Source: Capsulimonadales bacterium
GTDB taxonomy: Bacteria; Armatimonadota; Armatimonadia; Armatimonadales; Armatimonadaceae
Assembly (NCBI GenBank): GCA_033762295.1
Contig: JANRLW010000062.1
Coordinates: 1 to 64,000, forward strand
Reading direction: 5' to 3'
DNA: 64,000 bases
The translations under genes were made by a program, and so were the position numbers. Positions 6,408 to 17,678 of this stretch are shown here, in pieces (within the stretch, counting starts at the first letter, position 1; each line of letters opens with the position of its first letter). The notes beneath the pieces are model-generated. The model worked only from the letters and a program-made list of their open reading frames with translations, had not been told where the DNA came from and made no database searches.

Positions 6408-7999
6408 CGGGTATCCCCTCCCCGACGGATCGGCTGCCAGCGGTTTTCCAGAAAGCGCACCAGCGAGGTAAGCGGCAGAGTCATCGCCAGGTAGAGCAGG
6501 GCGACCGCCAGATAGATCGTGGTGGGTGCGCCGGCATTGGTCGCCAGTTCCTTCCCCACCCGCATCAACTCCGAAAGAGCGACCACCGATACCAGCGAGG
6601 AGTCCTTGAGAAGCGCAACGGCTTCGTTGGTCAGGGGTGGCAGAACCCGTCGGACCGTCTGCGGCAGGATCACGTAACGCATGGTCTGCATGCCGTTCAT
6701 GCCCAGAGCGTGCGCCGCCTCCCGTTGTCCGACCTCGATGCTTTCGATCCCGGCACGGAAGATTTCGGCGACATAAGCCGCGGAGTTCAGCGAAAGCGCG
6801 GCCAGTCCGGCCTGAAACGGCGGAAGCGAGATTTTCAATGCGGGGAGCACGAAATAGAGCACATAAATCTGCATCAGGAGCGGCGTCCCGCGCACCACCT
6901 CGACATACACGGTCGCCAGCATACGGAGCGGAACCAGACCGGAAAGCCGGGCCAGCGCCATCATCAGCCCGCACGGGACGCCGATCAGCAGGGTGCAGAG
7001 GGTAAGGAGCAGGGTCAGTCGTGCGCCGGTCAGCAGCAGCGGCAGAGCGTCCCGCAAAACCTCCGTCCGGATTGACAGCGCGGAGCCGCCGACCGACTGA
7101 TCCGGGGCCGCGAACGAACGGGCCTGAGTCCCCGGCGCAACCATCGCCTCGATCTCCGGAGGAATCGGCGTCCCCATGCTACGAGCCGATTCCAGTTTCG
7201 CGAGCGTCGCGCCGGTCATCGGGGTCCGCATCCACTTCTCATAGATGCGGGTATATCGGCCATCGACGAGGATACGCTCCAGAGCTTGATTGACCGCGGC
7301 GATCAGATCGCGTCCGTCCCGGCGCGCGACGATGCCGAGATACTCCTCGACGAACGGCTGATTCGACGCGATCTCCATCTCCGGGTAGCCTTTCCGGATC
7401 ATATCGGCGAGCGCCGGTTGATCGCCGACCGCCGCATCCGATTTTCCGTTCCGGGTATCGAGCAGGGCGTCCTGCAGCGTATCGAAGCGATGGACACGCT
7501 CCTTCGACATCCCGCGCTTTTCCATCGCGTACTGCCCCGTCGTCTCCTGCTGCACCGCGACCGTCCGGCCGTTTTTCAGCAGATCGTCGGGAGTCGAGAT
7601 CGTGCGGTCCCCTTTCCGGCGGGCGATCACCTGACCGGAGAGGAAGTAGGGACGGGAAAAGGCGTTTCCCTTCTTGCGTTCGTCGGTGATGGTGACACCG
7701 GACATGACGAGATCGGCCTTATCGGTCTCCAGGGAGGCGAAAACCCCTGACCACTCCATCGAGATAAACCGGGCTGGCACCCCGATCTCCTTGCCGATTT
7801 CGTCGCCGATCTCGCGATCGAACCCGACGACCTTCTCCTTCTCGAGGAATTCGAACGGCGGGTAGGTCGCATCGGTGGCGATTCGCAGGACGCCGCGCGC
7901 CCGTACCTGAGCGAGTCGATCATCGGCATGGGCGTTCTGCGCGGTAAAGAGCAATAATCCGGTGAGGATCCGGGCAGAAAAACGACGGTTCCCGAACAT
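6404..7999 (-). CDS. Fused amino-acid ABC substrate-binding protein and permease
   Basis: Signal peptide, SBP_bac_3 motif ([15 protein letters not shown]) and permease motifs ([27 protein letters not shown]). Confidence 0.9.
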
Positions 8000-8047: not shown

Positions 8048-10243
8048 TCACCGTTTCGGCGAATTCGCCTGACTCCGCTCCCGGAAGAACGCAGGCTCGT
8101 CCCGCACCATCTCGCCCAGACGATCCCGAAGCTCGCGATCCCGAACGGCGACCGAAACGACCGCTCCCGCATACAGAAGCAAGAGAACACCGGCCAGCGG
8201 AAGCCCGATCCGGTAGAAACCGCGCACCATCCCGACCGATACCGGCAGCCGTCGACGGTAACTTACCAGAGCCAGGACAAGCAGTCCGAGCGCCGGAAAC
8301 GCCAGTCCGGCGGACGCCAGGATCGACGGCACCCGAATGATTTCGAGGACCGTTCGGACGGCGTCACCGGTATCCGGGGGCGCGGGTAACAAAACGGACA
8401 GATCGCGCAAAAAGACGATCGGACCGGTCATCAGCAGTCCGCCGATCAGCGCCACGGCCAAAGTGATCATCACGGTCCGGAACGGCAGGAACCGGTTGGT
8501 CGGCGCACCGAAACCGGCGGAGACCCCTTCCGATCTCCTTCCGCCGGTTTGCGGCGAACGACCGGCGAGAAACAGACATAGCCCCGCCAGCACGAAACCG
8601 GCCGGAACCAGAAAGACCCCGTACGTATCCATGGTCGCCGCTCCGAAAAGGAACACCGGGACCGCCGTCAACAGGGCGAACCCCTGCGCCACGCCGGGCG
8701 GCATTCGCAACCCGCGCCGAACGGGTTCGGTCCGGACCAACTGTGCCGCCACCACGAACAACAACAGGGTCCAGATCGCCGCGAAAAGCAGAACGAACGA
8801 CGTACCGAACAGCATCAGGTACCCCGACATCCCCGGAAGCCCGGTGTTGAAGGTGTCCCCATCAAAGCCGAAGGCGAGCCACCCCTGGGCGTCCTGCCGC
8901 CACCCGGAAATTACCCGCGCCTGATGGGCGGCATACCGGGCTTCCGCCGTACCGACCCGCTTCACATAGGCGTCAAACCGTCGGAGGCGTAACGCATCCA
9001 GCCGACGACTTACTTCCGCGGTCATGCCGATCGGACTCGGTCGCCCGGTACCGGCTTCCGCCACATCCTCAGGTCGGACCTCCGGTTCGCCGTCCGGTCG
9101 GTTGATCGCGATCGCTCCGACCGCCGAGCCAACCAGACCGGCAAGGATCGTGGAGCCATCCCGCTGCATCTTTCGTGCGATCCGCAACAGGGCAAACCGG
9201 ATTGCGAACCCCTCCGCTCGTTTTCCCGTCGATTCCAGCCGTATGGCCTCGGCGTTCGCCGCACGCGCCAGCGCTCGAATCCGGGCCGTGTAAGCGTACA
9301 GGGTGGTCGAGCCGACGGCAAGCCGGGAAACGACGCCGGTTTCCCCGTGGGCCGCCATGGAAACGGCCCATTTGGCCCGGACCGCCTCCGGCGCATAGTC
9401 ATGAAACCGGTCCCTCGCCCCGGCCCGCCGCAGGGCCGCCATCGCTTCGTCGCGGCGACGATCCGACAGAAGGAACGCTGCGCGCATCAGCGGGAAAAAG
9501 GCGTTCTCCGGATCGGCCGTCTCACCGGCTTCCGAGTACGCCAGGCATTGCCGAACCAGTGCGGGGTCGTTCTCTCTTTTCGGAGCGGGCGTCCCTCCCG
9601 GCGTCTTTCTTCGGGTTTCTCCTTCCGTCTCCGTCGCGACGGAGGCAGGAGCGGCATTCAGGAGGAGTGCAAGGATTGTGGCTCGCTGTCGCTCGGGCGC
9701 CGGCAGGATTTTTTGCAGGTGGGTCCAGTGGTTGTCGGCCTCGTTGGGCCGCATCAACACCGCGCCGATCCGTAAGGTCAGGTTCTCCGGGTCGCGCCGG
9801 ACGGCGTTCGTGTACGCCGCCTGTCGATCCGTCTCGCTTTCCGGACGAACCAGGGCGACGACCCCTTCCGCAGCCAGGGAACGTAACTGTCGGCGGACGA
9901 GCCACCCGGTCGGCGGCAGGCAGCAGAGGGTCAATACGACGGTCAGCGCGAGAGCCGGCAAGGCAAAATGCCGTCTTCCCGGCGGCGGCCCCGCCCAATC
10001 GTTCGCTCCCCGACCGTCCGCGGTCGCCTCACCGGTCGGGATCGCAGGCCAGGTCGGCGCGGGTCGCCCCGGCGTCACCTCGCTGATTCGGCGAATATCG
10101 GCGTACAGCGTCCGGATCTCCTGCCATTCACGCTGCAGAGCGGGGGACCGCTCCAGATGACGGTGGACGAGCCAGCGATCCACCTCGGACAGTTCATCGG
10201 CCGCCAGATCGGGCAATTTGCGACGCGCCTGATCCTGATTCAT
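8048..10243 (-). CDS. Large multi-TM putative anti-sigma factor with degenerate zf-HC2 N-terminus
   Basis: Follows and overlaps an ECF sigma; GAAAGGAG SD; N-terminus LAADELSEVDRWLVHRHLERSPAL; one TM, a helical domain, then about 6 TMs. Confidence 0.65.
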   Translation of the reverse strand: MNQDQARRKLPDLAADELSEVDRWLVHRHLERSPALQREWQEIRTLYADIRRISEVTPGRPAPTWPAIPTGEATADGRGANDWAGPPPGRRHFALPALALTVVLTLCCLPPTGWLVRRQLRSLAAEGVVALVRPESETDRQAAYTNAVRRDPENLTLRIGAVLMRPNEADNHWTHLQKILPAPERQRATILALLLNAAPASVATETEGETRRKTPGGTPAPKRENDPALVRQCLAYSEAGETADPENAFFPLMRAAFLLSDRRRDEAMAALRRAGARDRFHDYAPEAVRAKWAVSMAAHGETGVVSRLAVGSTTLYAYTARIRALARAANAEAIRLESTGKRAEGFAIRFALLRIARKMQRDGSTILAGLVGSAVGAIAINRPDGEPEVRPEDVAEAGTGRPSPIGMTAEVSRRLDALRLRRFDAYVKRVGTAEARYAAHQARVISGWRQDAQGWLAFGFDGDTFNTGLPGMSGYLMLFGTSFVLLFAAIWTLLLFVVAAQLVRTEPVRRGLRMPPGVAQGFALLTAVPVFLFGAATMDTYGVFLVPAGFVLAGLCLFLAGRSPQTGGRRSEGVSAGFGAPTNRFLPFRTVMITLAVALIGGLLMTGPIVFLRDLSVLLPAPPDTGDAVRTVLEIIRVPSILASAGLAFPALGLLVLALVSYRRRLPVSVGMVRGFYRIGLPLAGVLLLLYAGAVVSVAVRDRELRDRLGEMVRDEPAFFRERSQANSPKR

Positions 10244-10880
10244 CGGCGTTGCTCCTTTCTTCATGAGAATCGGCGAAATGCCGGGGTTTCGGGGTGACGT
10301 TTGCGCCGGGCGCCAGGGAAGCCAGTTCGTCGTTTTGCAGCAGCAACCGCATCCGCCGGGTCGCCTCATGAAACCGCCATTTCACGGTCCCGACCGGCTC
10401 ACCGGTGATTGCCGCGGTCTCTCGATAGGTCAACTGCTGGCCGGCGATCAGGAGCAGGACCTCCCGGTATGCCGGTTCCAGCTGTGCGAGCGCCCGGTCG
10501 AGTGTCGTTCGATCGAGCACGCCCCGTTCGACGTCGTCCCGATGGGCCAGGGATTCGGATAACGGCAGGGTCGGCGGGGTCGCGGAGCGCTGCCGGTCGC
10601 GCCAGCGGCGAAACGCGATTCCGCAGAGCCAGGCGAGCGGTCGTCCGCGCTCGGCATAGGTCCCGCAGGCGGTATAGGAGGCGACGAACGTATCCTGGGT
10701 CAGATCCTCGGCCTCCGAACGGTTTCCCTGCGTCAGGCGCAGTAGCAGTCCCAGCACACGGGGCGCATACCGGACGTACAGCCGATCGAACGCCTCCCGA
10801 TTCCCCTGCCGCAACAGGGTAGGGGCAGGTTCGTTCTCCTCCGGGGTGCCGGCCACGTTTTCCGAAAGGGGTTTCGACAT
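10194..10880 (-). CDS. ECF-family RNA polymerase sigma factor
   Basis: AFDRLY, AEDLTQDTF, AWLCGIA and YRETAAITGEPVGTVKWR (regions 2 and 4). Confidence 0.9.
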   Translation of the reverse strand: MSKPLSENVAGTPEENEPAPTLLRQGNREAFDRLYVRYAPRVLGLLLRLTQGNRSEAEDLTQDTFVASYTACGTYAERGRPLAWLCGIAFRRWRDRQRSATPPTLPLSESLAHRDDVERGVLDRTTLDRALAQLEPAYREVLLLIAGQQLTYRETAAITGEPVGTVKWRFHEATRRMRLLLQNDELASLAPGANVTPKPRHFADSHEERSNADESGSGASQIARSGGR

Positions 10881-10939: not shown

Positions 10940-11977
10940 CTATTTTTCGCTTGCCGGCGCGAGGAGGGCACGAAGTTCGGGATACTCCCGGAAACGCCAG
11001 ATCAGACCGTCGGTGTAGTAGTGGAAGATTACCAGCATGGTGGCGGGGACGAACACCCACATCGCCCAGCTGTCGGGATGGAGCAATCCCTCGATCTCGA
11101 TCACGCCGACGACCGCGCCGTACAGCAACGCCACCGCCGCCCACTTCATCGCCACATTCCGGATATCGGGGAAGCGACGCCGCTGAAAATGCATCATCCA
11201 GCCGTGATACTGGACATCATGGTAGGCGGTTTCCAGGGCTTCCGCTACCAGAAACGGTGTCGCCGTGGCGAAAAAGACGAAGAAATGGGTCGAAAGCGCG
11301 GACCCCATCAGCAACAGTTTCGGCAGATTGACCGGCTTTCCGGTTCCGGCCCGCCAGACCTGTCGAAAGACCACCAGGGTGATCAACACCAGAAACACCT
11401 TCCAGAGATTCTCGCCCCACTCACCCGGCAAAGTCGGCGCATGAACCCGGATATTTCCGTAGACGATCAGCGGATTTTTCGTATCCCCGTAGTCATTGAA
11501 GAAGCAGGCGAACATCCCGAGGTAATACGCCGCGCCGTCGAGGACGTTATCCGCGGGTTCCCGATCGTCGTTCAGCGCCTTGTAGATTTTTATAAAGCCC
11601 CAGTGCTGTCGAATGATATGCCAGGTGCCGTAGATCGCCGCGCCGACGATCAGATACGCTTCCCACTTCAGCAGGAGGAACACATACCCGACCAGAATGA
11701 ACCCGGCGAGTCCCCAGGTGTAGAGCCGTCGGCGTTTGGCGAACTCCTCACGGTCGAAATGGGTCCGGGAAAAGGTCTGGAAGATATGCGGGTGATCGAA
11801 GAACGCCGTAAAGAGAAAATAGGTAATCAGCACGGAGTCGCCGCGCCAGAGGAATCCCAGGTGATGCGCCGTCTGATAGATGCCGAAAAAGGCGAAGGTC
11901 AGGAGGCAGGACCCGATGAAAAAGGTCAGGTCGTAACCCGGCGAGACGATCCAGCGAACGGGCTTCGGCGCGCTCAC
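10940..11977 (-). CDS. Polytopic membrane protein with several His motifs (putative metal-dependent membrane enzyme)
   Basis: About 9 hydrophobic segments; DHPHIFQT, WHIIRQHWG, HDVQYH and FHYYTDGLIW motifs; GTG start overlaps the speD stop (GTGA). Confidence 0.7.
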   Translation of the reverse strand: MSAPKPVRWIVSPGYDLTFFIGSCLLTFAFFGIYQTAHHLGFLWRGDSVLITYFLFTAFFDHPHIFQTFSRTHFDREEFAKRRRLYTWGLAGFILVGYVFLLLKWEAYLIVGAAIYGTWHIIRQHWGFIKIYKALNDDREPADNVLDGAAYYLGMFACFFNDYGDTKNPLIVYGNIRVHAPTLPGEWGENLWKVFLVLITLVVFRQVWRAGTGKPVNLPKLLLMGSALSTHFFVFFATATPFLVAEALETAYHDVQYHGWMMHFQRRRFPDIRNVAMKWAAVALLYGAVVGVIEIEGLLHPDSWAMWVFVPATMLVIFHYYTDGLIWRFREYPELRALLAPASEK

Positions 11978-12372
11978 CGTGCGCTCTCTCCCCGTCGCTG
12001 AACCCGTCGCCCGGTGCGTCCCGGCGCAAGGGCGGCGCAAAACACGTCCGCCGCCCGGATCGCCGTCTCCTCCGAGCCGCAGGTAAAGACGTCCGCCGCG
12101 ACAAAACCCCGTTCCGGATAGGTATGAAACGCGATATGCGACTCCGCCAGCGGCACAAACCCGGTCAGTCCGCCGTTCGGAAACCGATAGACGACCGGAT
12201 CGGAAAGGCAGGTCAGGCCCGCGGTCTCCGCCGCCTCGATCAGGGTCCGACGTAACCGCTCGCCATCCGTCACCCGTTCCTGCGCCACCGCATACAGGTC
12301 CAGCAGTACGTGAACGCCGACGCCGTTTTCCGCCACGGAGGGTTCCCGCGCCTCAGGAAACACGTCGATCAC
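11974..12372 (-). CDS. speD: Pyruvoyl-dependent S-adenosylmethionine decarboxylase proenzyme (class 1B)
   Basis: GVHVLLDL and GLTGFVPLAESHIAFHTYPERGFVAADVFTCG with the ESH autocleavage site; GTGA overlap with speE. Confidence 0.85.
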   Translation of the reverse strand: MIDVFPEAREPSVAENGVGVHVLLDLYAVAQERVTDGERLRRTLIEAAETAGLTCLSDPVVYRFPNGGLTGFVPLAESHIAFHTYPERGFVAADVFTCGSEETAIRAADVFCAALAPGRTGRRVQRRGESAR

Positions 12373-13961
12373 TCCCATTTTCGCGTGCCTTTCTCGTAAA
12401 GATCCAGAATCCGGGGAAAATCCAGGGTCGACGGTTCCGAGACGACCCGATCCGTGTCGGCATCGAACGCCGCCATGCCGATCGCCGATGCGCTGTTGAG
12501 AAACCGGGTCGGCACCGGGCTTTCGGCGAGGCGCATGCCGGTCAGTTTCGGCGCGGCCTCGACCCCGGCCAGAATGAACCCCCACTCCCCGAACGATGGC
12601 ACGTAGACATGATACGGGGTCGTACGGAACCCCGCCTCGCTCATCGTCTTCTCGATACACCAGAACGCCTCCCGGGCGACCAGCGGCGAGGTCGCCTGAG
12701 TGACGAACACCCCACCGACGCCCAGACGGGTTCGCGCCAGCCGGTAGAACTCCCGCGCGTACAGTTTCGCCAGCGCTTCATGATTCGGGTCCGGCAGGTC
12801 GGCGATAATGACCCCGTACCGATCGCTTCCCTCTTCCAGGAATTTGAACGCGTCGGTGTGAACGACACGAACCCGCGGATCGTTCAGGGCATTCTCGTTC
12901 AGCCGCACCAGGGCAGGGTAGGTGCGCGCCAGCCGGGTCATCTCCGGGTCGATGTCCACCAGTGTCACCCGCCGGACGTCGGGATACTTCAGCGCCTCCC
13001 GGACCCCGAGACCGTCCCCGCCACCCAGAATCAACACCTCCTCGCGGGACGCCGACAGCCGCATCGCCGGATGCACCAGGGACTCATGATAGCGGTACTC
13101 GTCGTTCGCCGAGAACTGGATGTTGCCATCCAGGTACAGCCGGATATCGTCCCGCTGCCGGGTGATAATGATCTTCTGATACGGCGTCTGCCGGGCGAAA
13201 AGGATGGCGTCCTCGTAGAGACGACGCTCGAGCAGAGAGGCGCCGCGATCGGCGAAGGCGACCCCGGCGGCCAGTCCGGCGGTCGCCAGCAAGGTCGCCG
13301 TCCACGGCCCACGGATCGGCAGCCGGTGGCGGAACACATGCAGGTTATACATCGCGATGCCGAGATTGAGCAGACCGACGACGAAAGCGGTCCGGGTGGT
13401 CCCGAGCAACGGCAGCAGAACGAGGGGAAACGCGACCGAACCGAGCAGCGACCCGACATAGTCGAAGGAAAGCGCATGGGCGATGGTCGTTCGCAGCGCG
13501 CCGTACCGCCCGAGCAGACGGGTCAGCAGCGGCAGCTCGATCCCGACCAGACCGCCGATCAGGATCAGCAGACCGAACAGGGCGACGTAGTAGCCCGCCC
13601 CGAGGTAGGCGTAGGCCGCGAACAGAGTCCAGGCGGACAATCCTCCGACCGTCCCCAGAACGATTTCGACGGTCAGAAAGGTGGACAGAAGGTTTCGACC
13701 GACGAACTGCGAAACGTAGGACCCCAGTCCCATCGCGCCGATAAAGGTGCCGATACAGAGGGAGAACTGGGTGACCGACGATCCGAGAAGGTACGAGGAG
13801 ATCGTCGCGATCAGCAGTTCGTAGATCAGGCCGCAGGCCGCGACCAGGAAGACCGACGCCAGCAGCGTCAACGCTTCCTGGCGCATCGCCGGCGTCAGTG
13901 CGGTCTCCTGCGCGTGCGGCGAGTACCGCGTTTCCTCCGTGCCCGGGGCCGGGGTTTCCAT
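12369..13961 (-). CDS. speE: Polyamine aminopropyltransferase with N-terminal ~7-TM domain
   Basis: CGLIYEL TM domain; QTPYQKI, LYLDGNIQF, YHESLVHP, VLILGGGDG and DLPDP. Confidence 0.9.
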   Translation of the reverse strand: METPAPGTEETRYSPHAQETALTPAMRQEALTLLASVFLVAACGLIYELLIATISSYLLGSSVTQFSLCIGTFIGAMGLGSYVSQFVGRNLLSTFLTVEIVLGTVGGLSAWTLFAAYAYLGAGYYVALFGLLILIGGLVGIELPLLTRLLGRYGALRTTIAHALSFDYVGSLLGSVAFPLVLLPLLGTTRTAFVVGLLNLGIAMYNLHVFRHRLPIRGPWTATLLATAGLAAGVAFADRGASLLERRLYEDAILFARQTPYQKIIITRQRDDIRLYLDGNIQFSANDEYRYHESLVHPAMRLSASREEVLILGGGDGLGVREALKYPDVRRVTLVDIDPEMTRLARTYPALVRLNENALNDPRVRVVHTDAFKFLEEGSDRYGVIIADLPDPNHEALAKLYAREFYRLARTRLGVGGVFVTQATSPLVAREAFWCIEKTMSEAGFRTTPYHVYVPSFGEWGFILAGVEAAPKLTGMRLAESPVPTRFLNSASAIGMAAFDADTDRVVSEPSTLDFPRILDLYEKGTRKWE

Positions 13962-13976
13962 AAAATCGGAATCCGT

Positions 13977-14300
13977 CTACGGCGAAAGGATCGTCGCCGC
14001 GATGATCAGGCAGACGCCGAGGACGATCGCGCCCGCCAGAACCGCCGCCGCCATGTTCTTCTGTTCGAAGATCTCCTTCTCGATATCGTGGCGGACGACG
14101 ACATCGAAGAGTTTGAAGCCGACGATGGCGAGAATGATCCCGATCGCGCCGAAAACCAGCGTGCCGACGATGCTCTGTAGCATATCCCGACTTCGCGCCG
14201 GTGCGTTCGCCGGGTCCTGCGCCCAGGCCGCCGCCGAAAACAGCACGGACGTAAACGTTACCGCCGTCCTCCCCAGAAGCCGCCCGATCCTTGTCCTCAT
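13977..14300 (-). CDS. DUF350-family membrane protein
   Basis: FKLFD...DIEKEIFEQKNMAAAVLAGA motif with two TMs and a signal-like N-terminus; GGAGG SD. Confidence 0.8.
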   Translation of the reverse strand: MRTRIGRLLGRTAVTFTSVLFSAAAWAQDPANAPARSRDMLQSIVGTLVFGAIGIILAIVGFKLFDVVVRHDIEKEIFEQKNMAAAVLAGAIVLGVCLIIAATILSP

Positions 14301-14328
14301 GCCCATCCTCCCGATCCTCCGTCGATCT

Positions 14329-14517
14329 TTATTTCCCGTAACGCGGTCCGCCATCGATATCGATTCCGAGCCGGGCCGTTCGCTGCTGCAGAATCATCCG
14401 TTCGCGGATGGCGGCGTCATCCGTGGTGGAGATCCCCCACCCCAAATAGGACGCGGTCATCGACAGAAGCAACAAGCAAACCAGAACCGCCAGGGTGAAT
14501 CGGTATCCGATGCCCAT
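14329..14517 (-). CDS. Small single-TM protein ending GGPRYGK
   Basis: GGAGG SD; located between DUF4178 and DUF350 genes; N-terminal hydrophobic helix. Confidence 0.75.
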   Translation of the reverse strand: MGIGYRFTLAVLVCLLLLSMTASYLGWGISTTDDAAIRERMILQQRTARLGIDIDGGPRYGK

Positions 14518-14531
14518 CCGTTTCCTCCCGT

Positions 14532-15818
14532 CTAACTTTCCCAGACCTTTTTCTGCGCCGTGACGGAAGCCATTGCGAGAGCGATCAGCCCGATCCCCAG
14601 GGCAGGGAAGCCGAACCAGAGCAGATGGCTCGGGCAGGCGACTCCTTCCTCGATGGAGAAGAAGACCGCAATCTCCGGACTTCCGGGCGGCAATTCGGTT
14701 CCGTTGGGTCCTTCCGGGTCCGTGAAGACACGAACGAACACCTGACGCGGCTTGTCGAGATGGTACTCCTGCTGGGCGGCGGTCACCGACTCGCTCCAGT
14801 AGCCGTCATCATAACCGCTCTCGGCCCAGAACTCGCCGTCGAGTCCGAACAGCGGCTTTCCTTCCGGCGTTTCGATCACGCCCTGCGCCCAGGTGGACCG
14901 GTTATTCGGCACGCCGGCCGACAGACGGAATCGGGACGGACGGACGGTCTCCTTCAGCGCGAAAGGGCCGAAACGCAGCCCTTCCTCCGGCACCCGAACC
15001 CCTCCGGTCGTGCCCTGCGCAATGATTGTGCCCGTGTTCGGCATCAGGAAAAACCCGGCGAACGCGAAAAAGGCCATCCCGATCACGTACCACCCGAAGT
15101 TCCGTTGCGCCCGCGCCCTGCTTGCCTGAGCGATCTCCTTTCGGAGGAGATCGTCCAGACCGAACCAGGTCAGCACCTCCCGATCGTCCAGGGAACGACA
15201 GCGATACCACTCCGCCTCGCCGGTATCTTCCTTCAGTTCGAACCCGTAGGCGTCTCCGCCCATGGCCACGTCGGCGAAATAGAACGACTGACCGACACGA
15301 ACGGGCCAGGGCAACGCCCCTTCAATATCCGTGACCTCGCAGGTGCCGCAGTCCCGAACCGTTCCCATCCGACCGAAAACCGGAATCGGCATCCCTTCGT
15401 ACGCCTTCAGCGCCTGGCGAACGCTCTCCGGACCGGCAGGCTCGGTCGGTTCGGCGAGCAGCCACTTCCCCGCCTCAAATTCCAGATATCTCTCCTCGCC
15501 GTCGGAGGTCAGCAGAACGAACGTCTGCCAGAAATAGTTTTCATCCGTGCCCGTATCGGTGTTTCTCACGGTCTGACGATACGCGACGATCGCCACGAGG
15601 AAGTAGGTCCGCCCCGCCAGTTGCGCCTTCATGCCGACCCGAAGCGGCGTTCGATGCGGCACGGGATCGCCGGGACGAGCAAAATGGGATCGTGCCGGAA
15701 TCTCCTTCCCGCAGCGGGCGCAGACATAACCCGACCGGCCGGAGGACGGCAGGAAGGCGAATCCGCCACAGGCAGGACAGGTGGTTTCCGATGGTTCAGG
15801 CATACCCGGTTGATCCAT
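14532..15818 (-). CDS. DUF4178-domain membrane protein with N-terminal Zn-ribbon
   Basis: CPAC...CARC, TPLRVGMK, YFWQTFVL, EGALPWPVRVG and FWAESGYDDGYWSE; two TMs; operon context. Confidence 0.75.
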   Translation of the reverse strand: MDQPGMPEPSETTCPACGGFAFLPSSGRSGYVCARCGKEIPARSHFARPGDPVPHRTPLRVGMKAQLAGRTYFLVAIVAYRQTVRNTDTGTDENYFWQTFVLLTSDGEERYLEFEAGKWLLAEPTEPAGPESVRQALKAYEGMPIPVFGRMGTVRDCGTCEVTDIEGALPWPVRVGQSFYFADVAMGGDAYGFELKEDTGEAEWYRCRSLDDREVLTWFGLDDLLRKEIAQASRARAQRNFGWYVIGMAFFAFAGFFLMPNTGTIIAQGTTGGVRVPEEGLRFGPFALKETVRPSRFRLSAGVPNNRSTWAQGVIETPEGKPLFGLDGEFWAESGYDDGYWSESVTAAQQEYHLDKPRQVFVRVFTDPEGPNGTELPPGSPEIAVFFSIEEGVACPSHLLWFGFPALGIGLIALAMASVTAQKKVWES

Positions 15819-16054: not shown

Positions 16055-16951
16055 ATGGATACCGCAGGAACGCTCACCGCCTTTTCGGGGGAACTCGCCG
16101 CCGCGGTCGCGCGGACGGGTGAATCACTGGTTCGGGTCGATGACGGGTCGCGCTTTACCGCGACCGGAATCCTCTGGGACACGGGTCTGGTGGTCACCAC
16201 CTCGCACGGGGTGGAAAGGGATGAGGAGATCGTCGTCATCACCGCGGACGGGGTCCGTCACGCCGCCACGCTGGTCGGACGGGACGCCGACAGCGATATC
16301 GCGGTGCTCAAAACGGCCGATTCCCTGTCGGCCCCGATCGCGAAGGAGACCGACGAACAGGCGGTCCGGGTCGGACACCTCGCGCTTGCCGTCGCCCGGC
16401 CCGGCGACAACGGTCTGACCGCCACCCTGGGCCTCATCACGCGCAAATACGAAACCGAGACCGAAGGAAACCCCGAATATATCCTGAACACCGACGCGAT
16501 TCTGTACCCCGGCTTTTCGGGCGGCGCGCTGATCGGCGTCGAGGGGAAACTGCTCGGCCTCCTGAACCGTCTCTTCGGTCAGGGACTGGGTGTCGCCCTG
16601 GGCGTACCGCTGGTGGAGCGGATTGTCGGACTTCTGGTAGCGCATGGAAAGATGCCGCGCGGTTACCTGGGTATCCGGACACAGGTTGTCGCCCTGCCGG
16701 AAAACCTCCGGGCCGGGCTGGCGCTGGCCCAGGAACGGGGCCTTCTGATCTCGGGCGTGTCCCCGCAGAGTCCCGCCGATACCGCCGGGCTCCTTCTGGG
16801 CGATACCCTGTTGAAAGTGAACGGCCAGCCGATTCAGGATACCGAGGAGTTGAAGCGTTACCTTCGGGTCGGCCAGACGATCGCCGTCACCCTTTTGCGC
16901 GGCGGTGTGCCGACGGAGCTTTCCGCCACCATCGAAGCCGAAAAAGAGTAG
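16055..16951 (+). CDS. S1C trypsin-like serine protease with PDZ domain, no signal peptide
   Basis: TTSH, SDIAVL and PGFSGG catalytic triad; RGYLGI and SPADTAGLLLGD PDZ motifs. Confidence 0.85.
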   Translation: MDTAGTLTAFSGELAAAVARTGESLVRVDDGSRFTATGILWDTGLVVTTSHGVERDEEIVVITADGVRHAATLVGRDADSDIAVLKTADSLSAPIAKETDEQAVRVGHLALAVARPGDNGLTATLGLITRKYETETEGNPEYILNTDAILYPGFSGGALIGVEGKLLGLLNRLFGQGLGVALGVPLVERIVGLLVAHGKMPRGYLGIRTQVVALPENLRAGLALAQERGLLISGVSPQSPADTAGLLLGDTLLKVNGQPIQDTEELKRYLRVGQTIAVTLLRGGVPTELSATIEAEKE

Positions 16952-16991: not shown

Positions 16992-17678
16992 TTGACGGAT
17001 TGCGCACGGGTTCTGATCGTTGCCGGATATCCCTCGGTCCGGGCGGGGCTGCACGCCCTGCTTTCGGACGCCGACGGTCTGACCGTTCTGGGGGCGGTGG
17101 AAGGGGCGGGCGAGACGCTGGCTCGCCTCCTTCCGGAACTGTCCCCTCAGGCGGTGCTGCTGGATACGGCCGGGTGGGACCGCTCCGGTTCCGAGAGCCT
17201 GAACGACCTGCTGGAACTGCTCGCGATCAATCCCGCCGCGCTGATCATTCTCGGCGATACGCCCGAGAACGATCTTCCCCTGCTCGCGGAAGCCGACCTT
17301 CCCGGCTATGGCTACCTGCTCCGCCAGGTGGACGGTCCGCAGATCGTGGCAGCCGTCCGCGCCGCCGCCGCGGGTCTGACCGTGCTCGATCGCGGTCTGC
17401 CGCTGCCGCTCTTATCCCCGGTCGAGGACGACCCCGAAAACCTTCCGGCCGCCGCGCCGACACAGGAAGAGATTCCGGGCGAAACCCTGACTCCGCGCGA
17501 AATCGAGGTGCTGGAACTGATGGCGCAGGGCCTGCCGAACAAGATCATCGCCGCCCGCCTCAAAATCAGCCTGCATACGGCCAAGTTCCATGTCGCCCAG
17601 ATCCTGGGCAAACTGAATGCCGCCTCACGAACCGAAGCGGTGACCACCGGCGCGCGTCGCGGCTATGTCACGCTGTGA
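16992..17678 (+). CDS. NarL/LuxR-type regulator with atypical receiver domain
   Basis: LTPREIEVLELMAQGLPNKIIA...TAKFHV LuxR HTH. Confidence 0.85.
   Translation: MTDCARVLIVAGYPSVRAGLHALLSDADGLTVLGAVEGAGETLARLLPELSPQAVLLDTAGWDRSGSESLNDLLELLAINPAALIILGDTPENDLPLLAEADLPGYGYLLRQVDGPQIVAAVRAAAAGLTVLDRGLPLPLLSPVEDDPENLPAAAPTQEEIPGETLTPREIEVLELMAQGLPNKIIAARLKISLHTAKFHVAQILGKLNAASRTEAVTTGARRGYVTL

Follow-up and report, generated by a model that had tools for sequence, protein, structure and literature searches.

Which molecule receives the aminopropyl group when an aminopropyltransferase is fused to half of a membrane transporter and is encoded among several other membrane proteins? This question is raised by a six-gene operon whose open reading frames (ORFs) are all co-oriented on the minus strand, at 10940..15818 of a 64,000-nucleotide stretch of contig JANRLW010000062.1 from a Capsulimonadales bacterium (Armatimonadota). 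This whole stretch of analyzed DNA is called the window below. The acceptor of transporter-fused aminopropyltransferases is open in the accessible parts of the literature (PMC11237479), as are the physiological substrates of the Escherichia coli enzymes YgiC and YjfC (PMC11762307), which will enter the argument later. The answer proposed here is that the fifth gene product (g5, SpeD) makes decarboxylated S-adenosylmethionine (dcSAM), that the half-transporter of the fourth (g4) exports it, and that the enzyme domain of the same protein, lying outside the membrane, aminopropylates the C-terminal lysine, Lys62, of the second (g2), a course of events that we consider on balance probable.

The initial annotation of this DNA, made from the letters alone, had described six same-strand genes with gaps of at most 28 bp, and all six ORFs are indeed found at this span. 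The intergenic distances from g1 to g6 are 14, 28, 15, −4, and −4 nt when g3 starts at the ATG at 14300, a start chosen because a well-spaced GGGAGG precedes it, while the longest ORF begins at 14354. GTGA occurs at both −4 junctions, in line with the described linkage of the last three genes, and an in-frame ATG at 12378 in the SpeD gene means that its overlap with g4 could be 10 nt. Hydrophobic segments are present in five of the six products and missing from SpeD, so that the count of five membrane proteins stands. Regarding other elements, Rfam gave no match between 8000 and 18000, and promoter and terminator scans returned chance level only.

The comparisons made here draw on 49 related loci, retrieved with g4, of which 13 are from Chryseobacterium and some are short contigs. 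They come from Acidobacteriota, Bacillota, Bacteroidota, Myxococcota, Planctomycetota, Elusimicrobiota, Actinomycetota, and other phyla. DUF350 is encoded in 43 of them, DUF4178-like proteins in 38 (with a broadened profile, which replaced a first one that was too narrow and reached 26 loci), SpeD in 31, a flavin amine oxidase in 26, a multi-His membrane protein in 25, and PspA and band-7 proteins in three each. The co-occurrence is not a matter of chance, and the possibility, raised in the initial annotation, that these genes are not conserved together is contradicted by the 49 loci. The closest loci are from Armatimonadota, with g4 identities of 64–71%; in two of them, L024 and L033, the six genes are complete and follow the same order, with speE and speD separated by insertions (in L024, at 9515-10196, a small ORF and a nucleotidyltransferase, DUF6036 with a weak AbiEii match), and two more loci break off or are interrupted past speE.

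The central protein, g4 (12369..13961, minus strand; 530 aa), is a PRK03612-family fusion of a half of the major facilitator superfamily (MFS) with an aminopropyltransferase, and thus belongs to the same enzyme family as the MFS-SpdSyn (PRK03612.1) and NF037959 fusions (NF002956, 622 against 472 bits; NF037959, 45.1 against 40). It matches Spermine_synth at E 1e-38 and falls below the cut-offs for canonical SpeE (TIGR00417, 143 against 249.55; NF002010, 171 against 260). The aminopropyltransferase domain, residues 243-527, matches a Thermus aminopropyltransferase in structure with a Z of 36.3, retains D316, D338, D388, D391, Y291, and H292, and carries both the dcSAM-binding GGGD/E-G motif and the catalytic Asp-x-x-Asp. 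In the 46-sequence alignment, which leaves out L025, L042, L048, and L049, D316 is found in 44 sequences (E in the other two), and D388 and D391 in all 46. As a separate observation, Arg290, adjoining the catalytic Tyr, is invariant in the 46 sequences and is Tyr or Ile in the three solved enzymes compared; it is a candidate binder of a C-terminal carboxylate. Two loci have altered copies of the gene for this transmembrane (TM) SpeE: in L049 (7989-9475) it is split over two ORFs, by a frameshift or an assembly error, and in L025 (1049-2989) its 3' end is replaced by a tyrosine-recombinase-like frame, recognized by eye, which suggests that an element has integrated there. No full-length TM-SpeE fusion was found in phage records.

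The location of the enzyme domain decides what it can act on, and here two methods agree. The AlphaFold model of g4 (predicted local distance difference test, pLDDT, 91) has seven helices ahead of the enzyme domain; residues 17-217 form one six-TM MFS half (best Z 19.2, root-mean-square deviation, rmsd, 3.2, 192 aligned residues), followed by TM7 at 217-236, so that each chain carries one lobe, in contrast to the twelve-helix, two-lobe MFS carrier. MFS halves start and finish in the cytoplasm, and exactly one further hydrophobic segment separates this half from the catalytic domain in all 46 sequences; for these reasons the enzyme domain is placed outside. The Lys plus Arg bias likewise assigns the N-terminus and loops 2-3, 4-5, and 6-7 to the inner side in every one of the 46. 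Both the model and the charge bias thus predict that the catalytic domain lies outside the membrane.

With the enzyme predicted to be outside, and with SpeD carrying no export signal, dcSAM would have to cross the membrane. SpeD (g5; 11974..12372, minus strand) is a class 1b S-adenosylmethionine decarboxylase (AdoMet_dc, E 1e-27; TIGR03330, 99.7 against a cut-off of 75.65), taken as cytoplasmic because it has neither a signal nor a TM segment. Aligned to 2iii, it keeps the Glu77-Ser78 self-cleavage site, His83, and Cys98, from which we infer that it makes dcSAM; some class 1b homologues are known to have switched their substrate to Arg or Orn. The MFS half itself has intramembrane acids, E48, E142, and D167 in 46 of 46 sequences and E99 in 44, which would suit a cationic substrate such as dcSAM. 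Moreover, L023 (4215-4862, minus strand) and L026 (4122-4796, minus strand) encode, besides the full-length gene and between DUF350 and the oxidase, a stand-alone seven-TM half-MFS paralogue with no catalytic domain. The partner flavin oxidases have a twin-arginine-like motif followed by Cys, i.e., Tat/lipoprotein signals, in 25 of 26 cases by a loose pattern, and the Lys tails described next are carried on lipoproteins or follow a single TM, all of which is consistent with action on the outer face.

The proposed acceptor, g2 (14329..14517, minus strand), has 62 residues, with one TM at 7-25 and an Arg/Gly-rich tail that ends in Gly-Lys62 (codon at 14332..14334, minus strand), the proposed modification site; like g6, it matches no Pfam or NCBIfam family. 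G26 and K62 are invariant in 34 aligned rows. More telling is that the gene ahead of DUF350 encodes several unrelated bodies, such as single-TM peptides of ∼60 aa, DUF4247, other lipoproteins, and DUF4178-TM fusions, whose tails are rich in Gly, Arg, Ser, and Tyr and finish in Gly-Lys or His-Lys. A same-strand ORF with this ending stands directly upstream of DUF350 in 36 of the 42 loci with room for it, against 6 of 471 control anchors, and adding hand-curated partners one gene further up or beside speE brings the figure to 41 of 49. A held-out set of loci, from 6 of 133 plasmid records, gave the same picture: each of the five with a full-length SpeE has a membrane partner whose last residue is Lys (G/H-K in four, V-K in one), and the sixth holds a gene fragment only. 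Where the initial annotation had supposed an envelope substrate such as a lipid, an exported amine, or the small protein, the terminal-Lys signature lends support to an envelope substrate and singles out g2. Separately, a Cys-x-Cys motif directly behind the TM helix is conserved in the small Lys-tailed proteins of L016 (7558-7752) and of its Chryseobacterium relatives. A complex prediction for g4 (22-530) with g2 scored 0.02 against a mark of 0.32; the fold of the partner is uncertain, and the result is counted neither way.

The choice of Lys62 depends mainly on a second pattern, namely that the last residue of the partner tracks the chemistry of the enzyme. E. coli has two related systems, YgiBC and YjfIJKLMC, in which the ligases YgiC and YjfC, annotated in K-12 as peptide-spermidine ligases, have partners, YgiB and YjfM, that end in Gly-Gly, as do three ligase partners in Saprospiraceae. 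Among eight loci with YgiC-like ligases, from 146 plasmid records, the partner ends in GG in five and in GS in two and is missing from one, with no Lys ending among them. The yjf operon shares with the window DUF350, which is common to the SpeE-type and the ATP-grasp-type operons, as well as a lipoprotein-like partner and a basic Gly-rich tail, and the expected product is likewise a polyamine at a protein C-terminus. It differs in that the ATP-grasp enzyme would ligate spermidine to the carboxyl of a Gly-Gly tail, and that there is neither a SpeD nor a half-MFS. The last residue thus appears to follow what each enzyme would need, an amine for the transferase and a Gly carboxyl for the ligase, a correlation and not a reaction. 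A 2025 review, in the part available, states the physiological substrate of the peptide-spermidine ligases YgiC and YjfC as unknown (PMC11762307).

The remaining proteins can be fitted around this core with different degrees of confidence. DUF350 (g3; 13977..14300, minus strand) is a DUF350/YjfL two-helix unit (PF03994, 51.7 against 26 bits, E 1e-13) with conserved Gly, Glu, and Asn. A signal-peptide-like N-terminal extension is found only in Armatimonadota (the window, L022, L024, L025, and L033) and is absent from the other 19 aligned copies; it would place the conserved acidic loop in the cytoplasm. In three Clostridia (L004, L011, and L015, at ∼7496-7963), two half-size DUF350 genes stand in tandem, an arrangement that suggests a dimer as the working form of the two-helix unit. 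The first protein, g1 (14532..15818, minus strand; 428 aa), was named DUF4178 in the initial annotation; Pfam gives no match to this family (PF13785, at the gathering score), only weak Zn ribbons, and the label nevertheless holds as a divergent member because g1 shares 37% identity, across 425 columns, with an Armatimonadota orthologue (L024) that itself matches DUF4178, and because a profile built on DUF4178 proteins of other phyla, 34 in number, detects it at E 5.5e-16. It has an N-terminal CxxC zinc-ribbon-like segment and TMs at 241-259 and 399-417, with the region between them predicted to be an extracytoplasmic domain, and it may, speculatively, be an accessory or scaffold.

The last protein, g6 (10940..11977, minus strand), is a polytopic multi-His membrane protein of 345 aa from an unnamed family with 1376 representatives at E ≤ 0.001. 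Its predicted structure (pLDDT 94) consists of ten long helices. Among 109 diverse members, D16, H64, H120, Q124, H253, and H319 never vary, and D61, Q256, Y257, and D323 hardly vary (D61, Q256, and D323 at least 90%). In the model these residues lie on helices 2, 4, 8, and 10, from the middle of the membrane inward, and probably make up a four-helix metal site within its inner half. The closest relatives are 55–80% identical. When kinship to known His-ligated membrane oxygenases (fatty-acid hydroxylases and desaturases, Brp/Blh) was looked for by family models and fold, no Pfam or NCBIfam family was common to more than one of the 109 members. There was no sequence match in the PDB, no Foldseek match at E ≤ 0.001, and no tblastn match among plasmids; the best fold match, to rhodopsin bundles, is below kinship level (Z 6.9, rmsd 5.8, 184 aligned). 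Its Atlas neighbors are unnamed, the best named cluster scoring 0.78 with TPR on 11% of its members, and three other family members are fused to TPR repeats. The single redox hint is P0208, a distant, eukaryote-like homologue fused to a cytochrome-b5-reductase-type FAD/NAD module. As for its company, the multi-His protein and the oxidase occur together in 23 loci, His alone in two (both Armatimonadota), the oxidase alone in three, and neither in 21; collapsing Chryseobacterium changes the first number to 11 and leaves the others as they are. In a quick tree of 81 rows, for which two over-long ORFs and eight proteins were shortened and 11 Chryseobacterium rows excluded, g6 groups with L024 and L033, apart from 12 oxidase-linked His proteins, a separation that we do not take to mean that g6 was recruited independently. 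Our best guess for g6 is a metal-dependent oxygenase or redox partner that works on the tail once it is modified, or on what oxidation makes of it; like any specific role for this protein, we regard it as doubtful.

Taken together, the operon would write a polyamine-like mark on an envelope protein at the outer face of the inner membrane. Cytoplasmic SpeD, a clear family member, would produce dcSAM. Two six-TM halves of g4 may pair as a 12-TM carrier whose buried acids move the cationic dcSAM outward, and the aminopropyltransferase domain, hung outside by TM7 in the predicted topology, would load the ε-amine of Lys62 with one aminopropyl group or several (+57.058 Da per group). Beyond this point the scheme is speculative: DUF350 and g1 may present or read the modified tail, g6 may serve as metal enzyme or redox partner on the tail or on by-products, and other phyla may use an exported flavin amine oxidase to remove or oxidize the mark. 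The ATP-grasp operons would arrive at something similar through ligation of spermidine to a tail that ends in Gly-Gly. Related operons are linked to PspA and band-7 proteins, on which ground the likely, though speculative, purpose is the control of envelope or membrane stress. A wider version would see extracytoplasmic polyamination in many phyla, where the half-MFS exports dcSAM, the Lys tail is aminopropylated, perhaps repeatedly, the oxidase and the His-metal enzyme erase or convert the mark, and YgiC and YjfC find their missing physiological substrates in YgiB and YjfM; we hold this version tentatively, as falling somewhat short of an even chance.

Several points weigh against Lys62 as the acceptor. 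The nearest solved structures of g4, triamine/agmatine and thermospermine synthases, are polyamine enzymes, and the alignment keeps D391 (46 of 46) and E245 (37 of 46), which we take to correspond to the distal-amine-binding acids of spermidine synthases and which would suit a free diamine or triamine too. SpeD is missing from 18 of the 49 loci and a Lys tail from eight, of which two (L002 and L020) have a contig end just upstream and six have room for it (three Saprospiraceae, L012, L017, and L021). The 13 Chryseobacterium loci make the counts nonindependent, and the G/H-K pattern was defined after the first tails had been inspected. The figure for homologues of g2, where 116 of the 120 listed from 142 matches end in Lys, is partly circular because the search profile contained that Lys. 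The charges that flank the TM of g2 are ambiguous as to its orientation. The parallel with the ATP-grasp operons also leaves a gap, as ATP-dependent ligation to an exported tail would have to precede export. Finally, according to the accessible part of a preprint, more than 20% of exported proteins in E. coli end in Lys, and a terminal Lys has a known use in tethering to peptidoglycan (10.1101/2024.09.03.610988).

These points give room to other explanations, beginning with that use. The terminal Lys could be an anchor of the Lpp or Dickeya OutB type, joined to peptidoglycan by L,D-transpeptidases, while SpeE modifies something else or extends the tether. Lpp and the inner-membrane OutB are envelope proteins with a functional C-terminal Lys, as proposed for g2, and are tethered through it, with a box that tolerates substitutions; in these systems, as far as the same source covers them, the Lys is acylated by the transpeptidases and dcSAM enzymes have no part (10.1101/2024.09.03.610988). 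The tails of the present partners are predicted to be extracytoplasmic, as an anchor requires, and the two ideas could even be combined, in that a primary amine is still available on Lys after aminopropylation. We nonetheless think wall anchoring quite unlikely, given that in ATP-grasp operons the final residue of the equivalent partner is Gly or Ser, so that this residue tracks the enzyme, and that no transpeptidase gene appears among the annotated part of the recurrent neighbors. A free surface polyamine, made or lengthened by the outward enzyme from putrescine, cadaverine, agmatine, or spermidine, with the Lys-tailed protein as a binding or regulatory partner, would agree with the solved relatives named above and with the invariance of the acceptor-pocket acids D388 and D391. 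In addition, in the Saprospiraceae L027 (2662-6746), L028, and L048, TM-SpeE stands back to back with a glutathionylspermidine-synthetase-like ligase, i.e., one of spermidine type, and a membrane protein ending in Gly-Gly; SpeD accompanies TM-SpeE in L027 and L028, so that both chemistries meet in one locus, where a Lys tail is not seen. For Pseudomonas, moreover, norspermidine at the surface has been proposed to arise by a periplasmic route. This explanation leaves the Lys endings beside SpeE and the Gly endings beside the ligase, on otherwise unrelated partners, without a reason, and we judge it unlikely.

A membrane lipid or wall amine, such as phosphatidylethanolamine, an aminoacyl lipid, or lipopolysaccharide ethanolamine, might instead be the acceptor, with g6 as a lipid-modifying metal enzyme. 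The catalytic domain is predicted to sit at the outer leaflet, g6 has its His-rich intramembrane site and the FAD/NAD reductase fusion in P0208, and the MFS halves resemble the lipid and choline carriers SPNS and FLVCR, among many others. The conserved Lys tail would then have no reason, the system occurs in monoderms and diderms alike, whose lipids differ greatly, and g6 is absent from 24 of 49 loci, all of which makes a lipid acceptor rather improbable in our estimate. The plainest possibility is that g4 makes spermidine in the usual way, facing the cytoplasm, with a membrane part that serves as anchor or exporter and with incidental neighbors. The NCBIfam name of g4 is polyamine aminopropyltransferase, its active site is intact, and SpeD is adjacent, yet the scores below the canonical SpeE cut-offs, the predicted outside position of the domain, and the recurrence of the neighbors across many phyla make this highly improbable, and they uphold the view of the initial annotation that the operon does not serve routine spermidine synthesis.

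Aminopropylation of the tail lysine, which we continue to prefer, has partial precedents. In eIF5A hypusine and in diatom silaffins, an aminoalkyl group is placed on a protein lysine, sometimes followed by metal-dependent hydroxylation; hypusine is made in the cytoplasm by NAD-dependent aminobutyl transfer from spermidine, with unrelated enzymes, and we know of no transporter-fused, outward-facing enzyme in either case. Regarding the MFS-SpdSyn fusions, Li et al. (2019) reportedly found that the acceptor is not putrescine and left it unidentified, and reportedly noted a linkage to DUF350. Genomes with such fusions are said in the same work to lack spermidine, and the domain is said not to complement E. 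coli speE, which counts against a free surface polyamine as the product.

The operon family itself is already in print, so that the claim of an undescribed system, made in the initial annotation, falls. The accessible part of Ravi et al. (2024) describes operons in which DUF4178, DUF350, and a seven-TM spermidine synthase occur with PspA/CesT, DUF4247, or band-7; one variant has band-7, AdoMetDC, and a polyamine oxidase, and a sister group has a glutathionylspermidine-synthetase-like ligase with DUF1190 (PMC11237479). The same authors suggest, citing Li et al. 2019, that other substrates are aminopropylated (PMC11237479), and the general idea of the initial annotation is therefore also published. 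With these operons, for example the Shewanella SO_3765 region, the window shares the core of DUF4178, DUF350, and TM-synthase, together with AdoMetDC, and the secreted or lipoprotein partner with a low-complexity part is comparable to g2. The kind of operon is thus known, and the locus differs: it adds the multi-His gene, which is of a separate clade, and has no PspA, band-7, or oxidase gene, as the profiles for these three found nothing in the 64-kb window. Neither a CesT nor a DUF2617 ORF is present in the operon, in which no profile search was aimed at either. The terminal Lys, the outward catalytic domain, dcSAM export, and the His family find no mention in the available portion of Ravi et al. 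More broadly, the Lys acceptor, the Lys/Gly swap, and the outside topology were not met in a literature search that was thin on subscription papers, where Li 2019 and Pederick 2023 may anticipate parts; and no acceptor is proposed in the accessible parts of PMC12568646, PMC11107197, PMC10948618, PMC9992855, PMC7990898, PMC8854784, PMC3726780, and 10.64898/2026.10.24.761521.

Around the operon, an ECF sigma factor (10194-10880, minus strand) and a zf-HC2 anti-sigma-like membrane protein (8048-10369, minus strand) follow co-oriented, 59 nt after g6; the pair was considered as a conserved part of the operon and rejected, as it does not stand beside the operon in L024 or L033. On the other side, a divergent HtrA-like trypsin-PDZ protease with no evident signal peptide (16055-16951, plus strand) is followed by a NarL-type regulator (16992-17678, plus strand), and these genes could share the intergenic control region.

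The meaning of the proposal is that the pattern of tail against enzyme names one residue per system, readable as a simple mass shift, for two orphan enzyme families. If true, lysine aminopropylation would be a bacterial protein modification that takes place outside the cytoplasm, and the half-MFS would be the first candidate exporter of dcSAM. The large unnamed family of His-metal membrane proteins to which g6 belongs would be opened to study. Moreover, DUF350, DUF4178, DUF4247, and DUF1190 would be joined in one process, linked to envelope stress of the PspA type.

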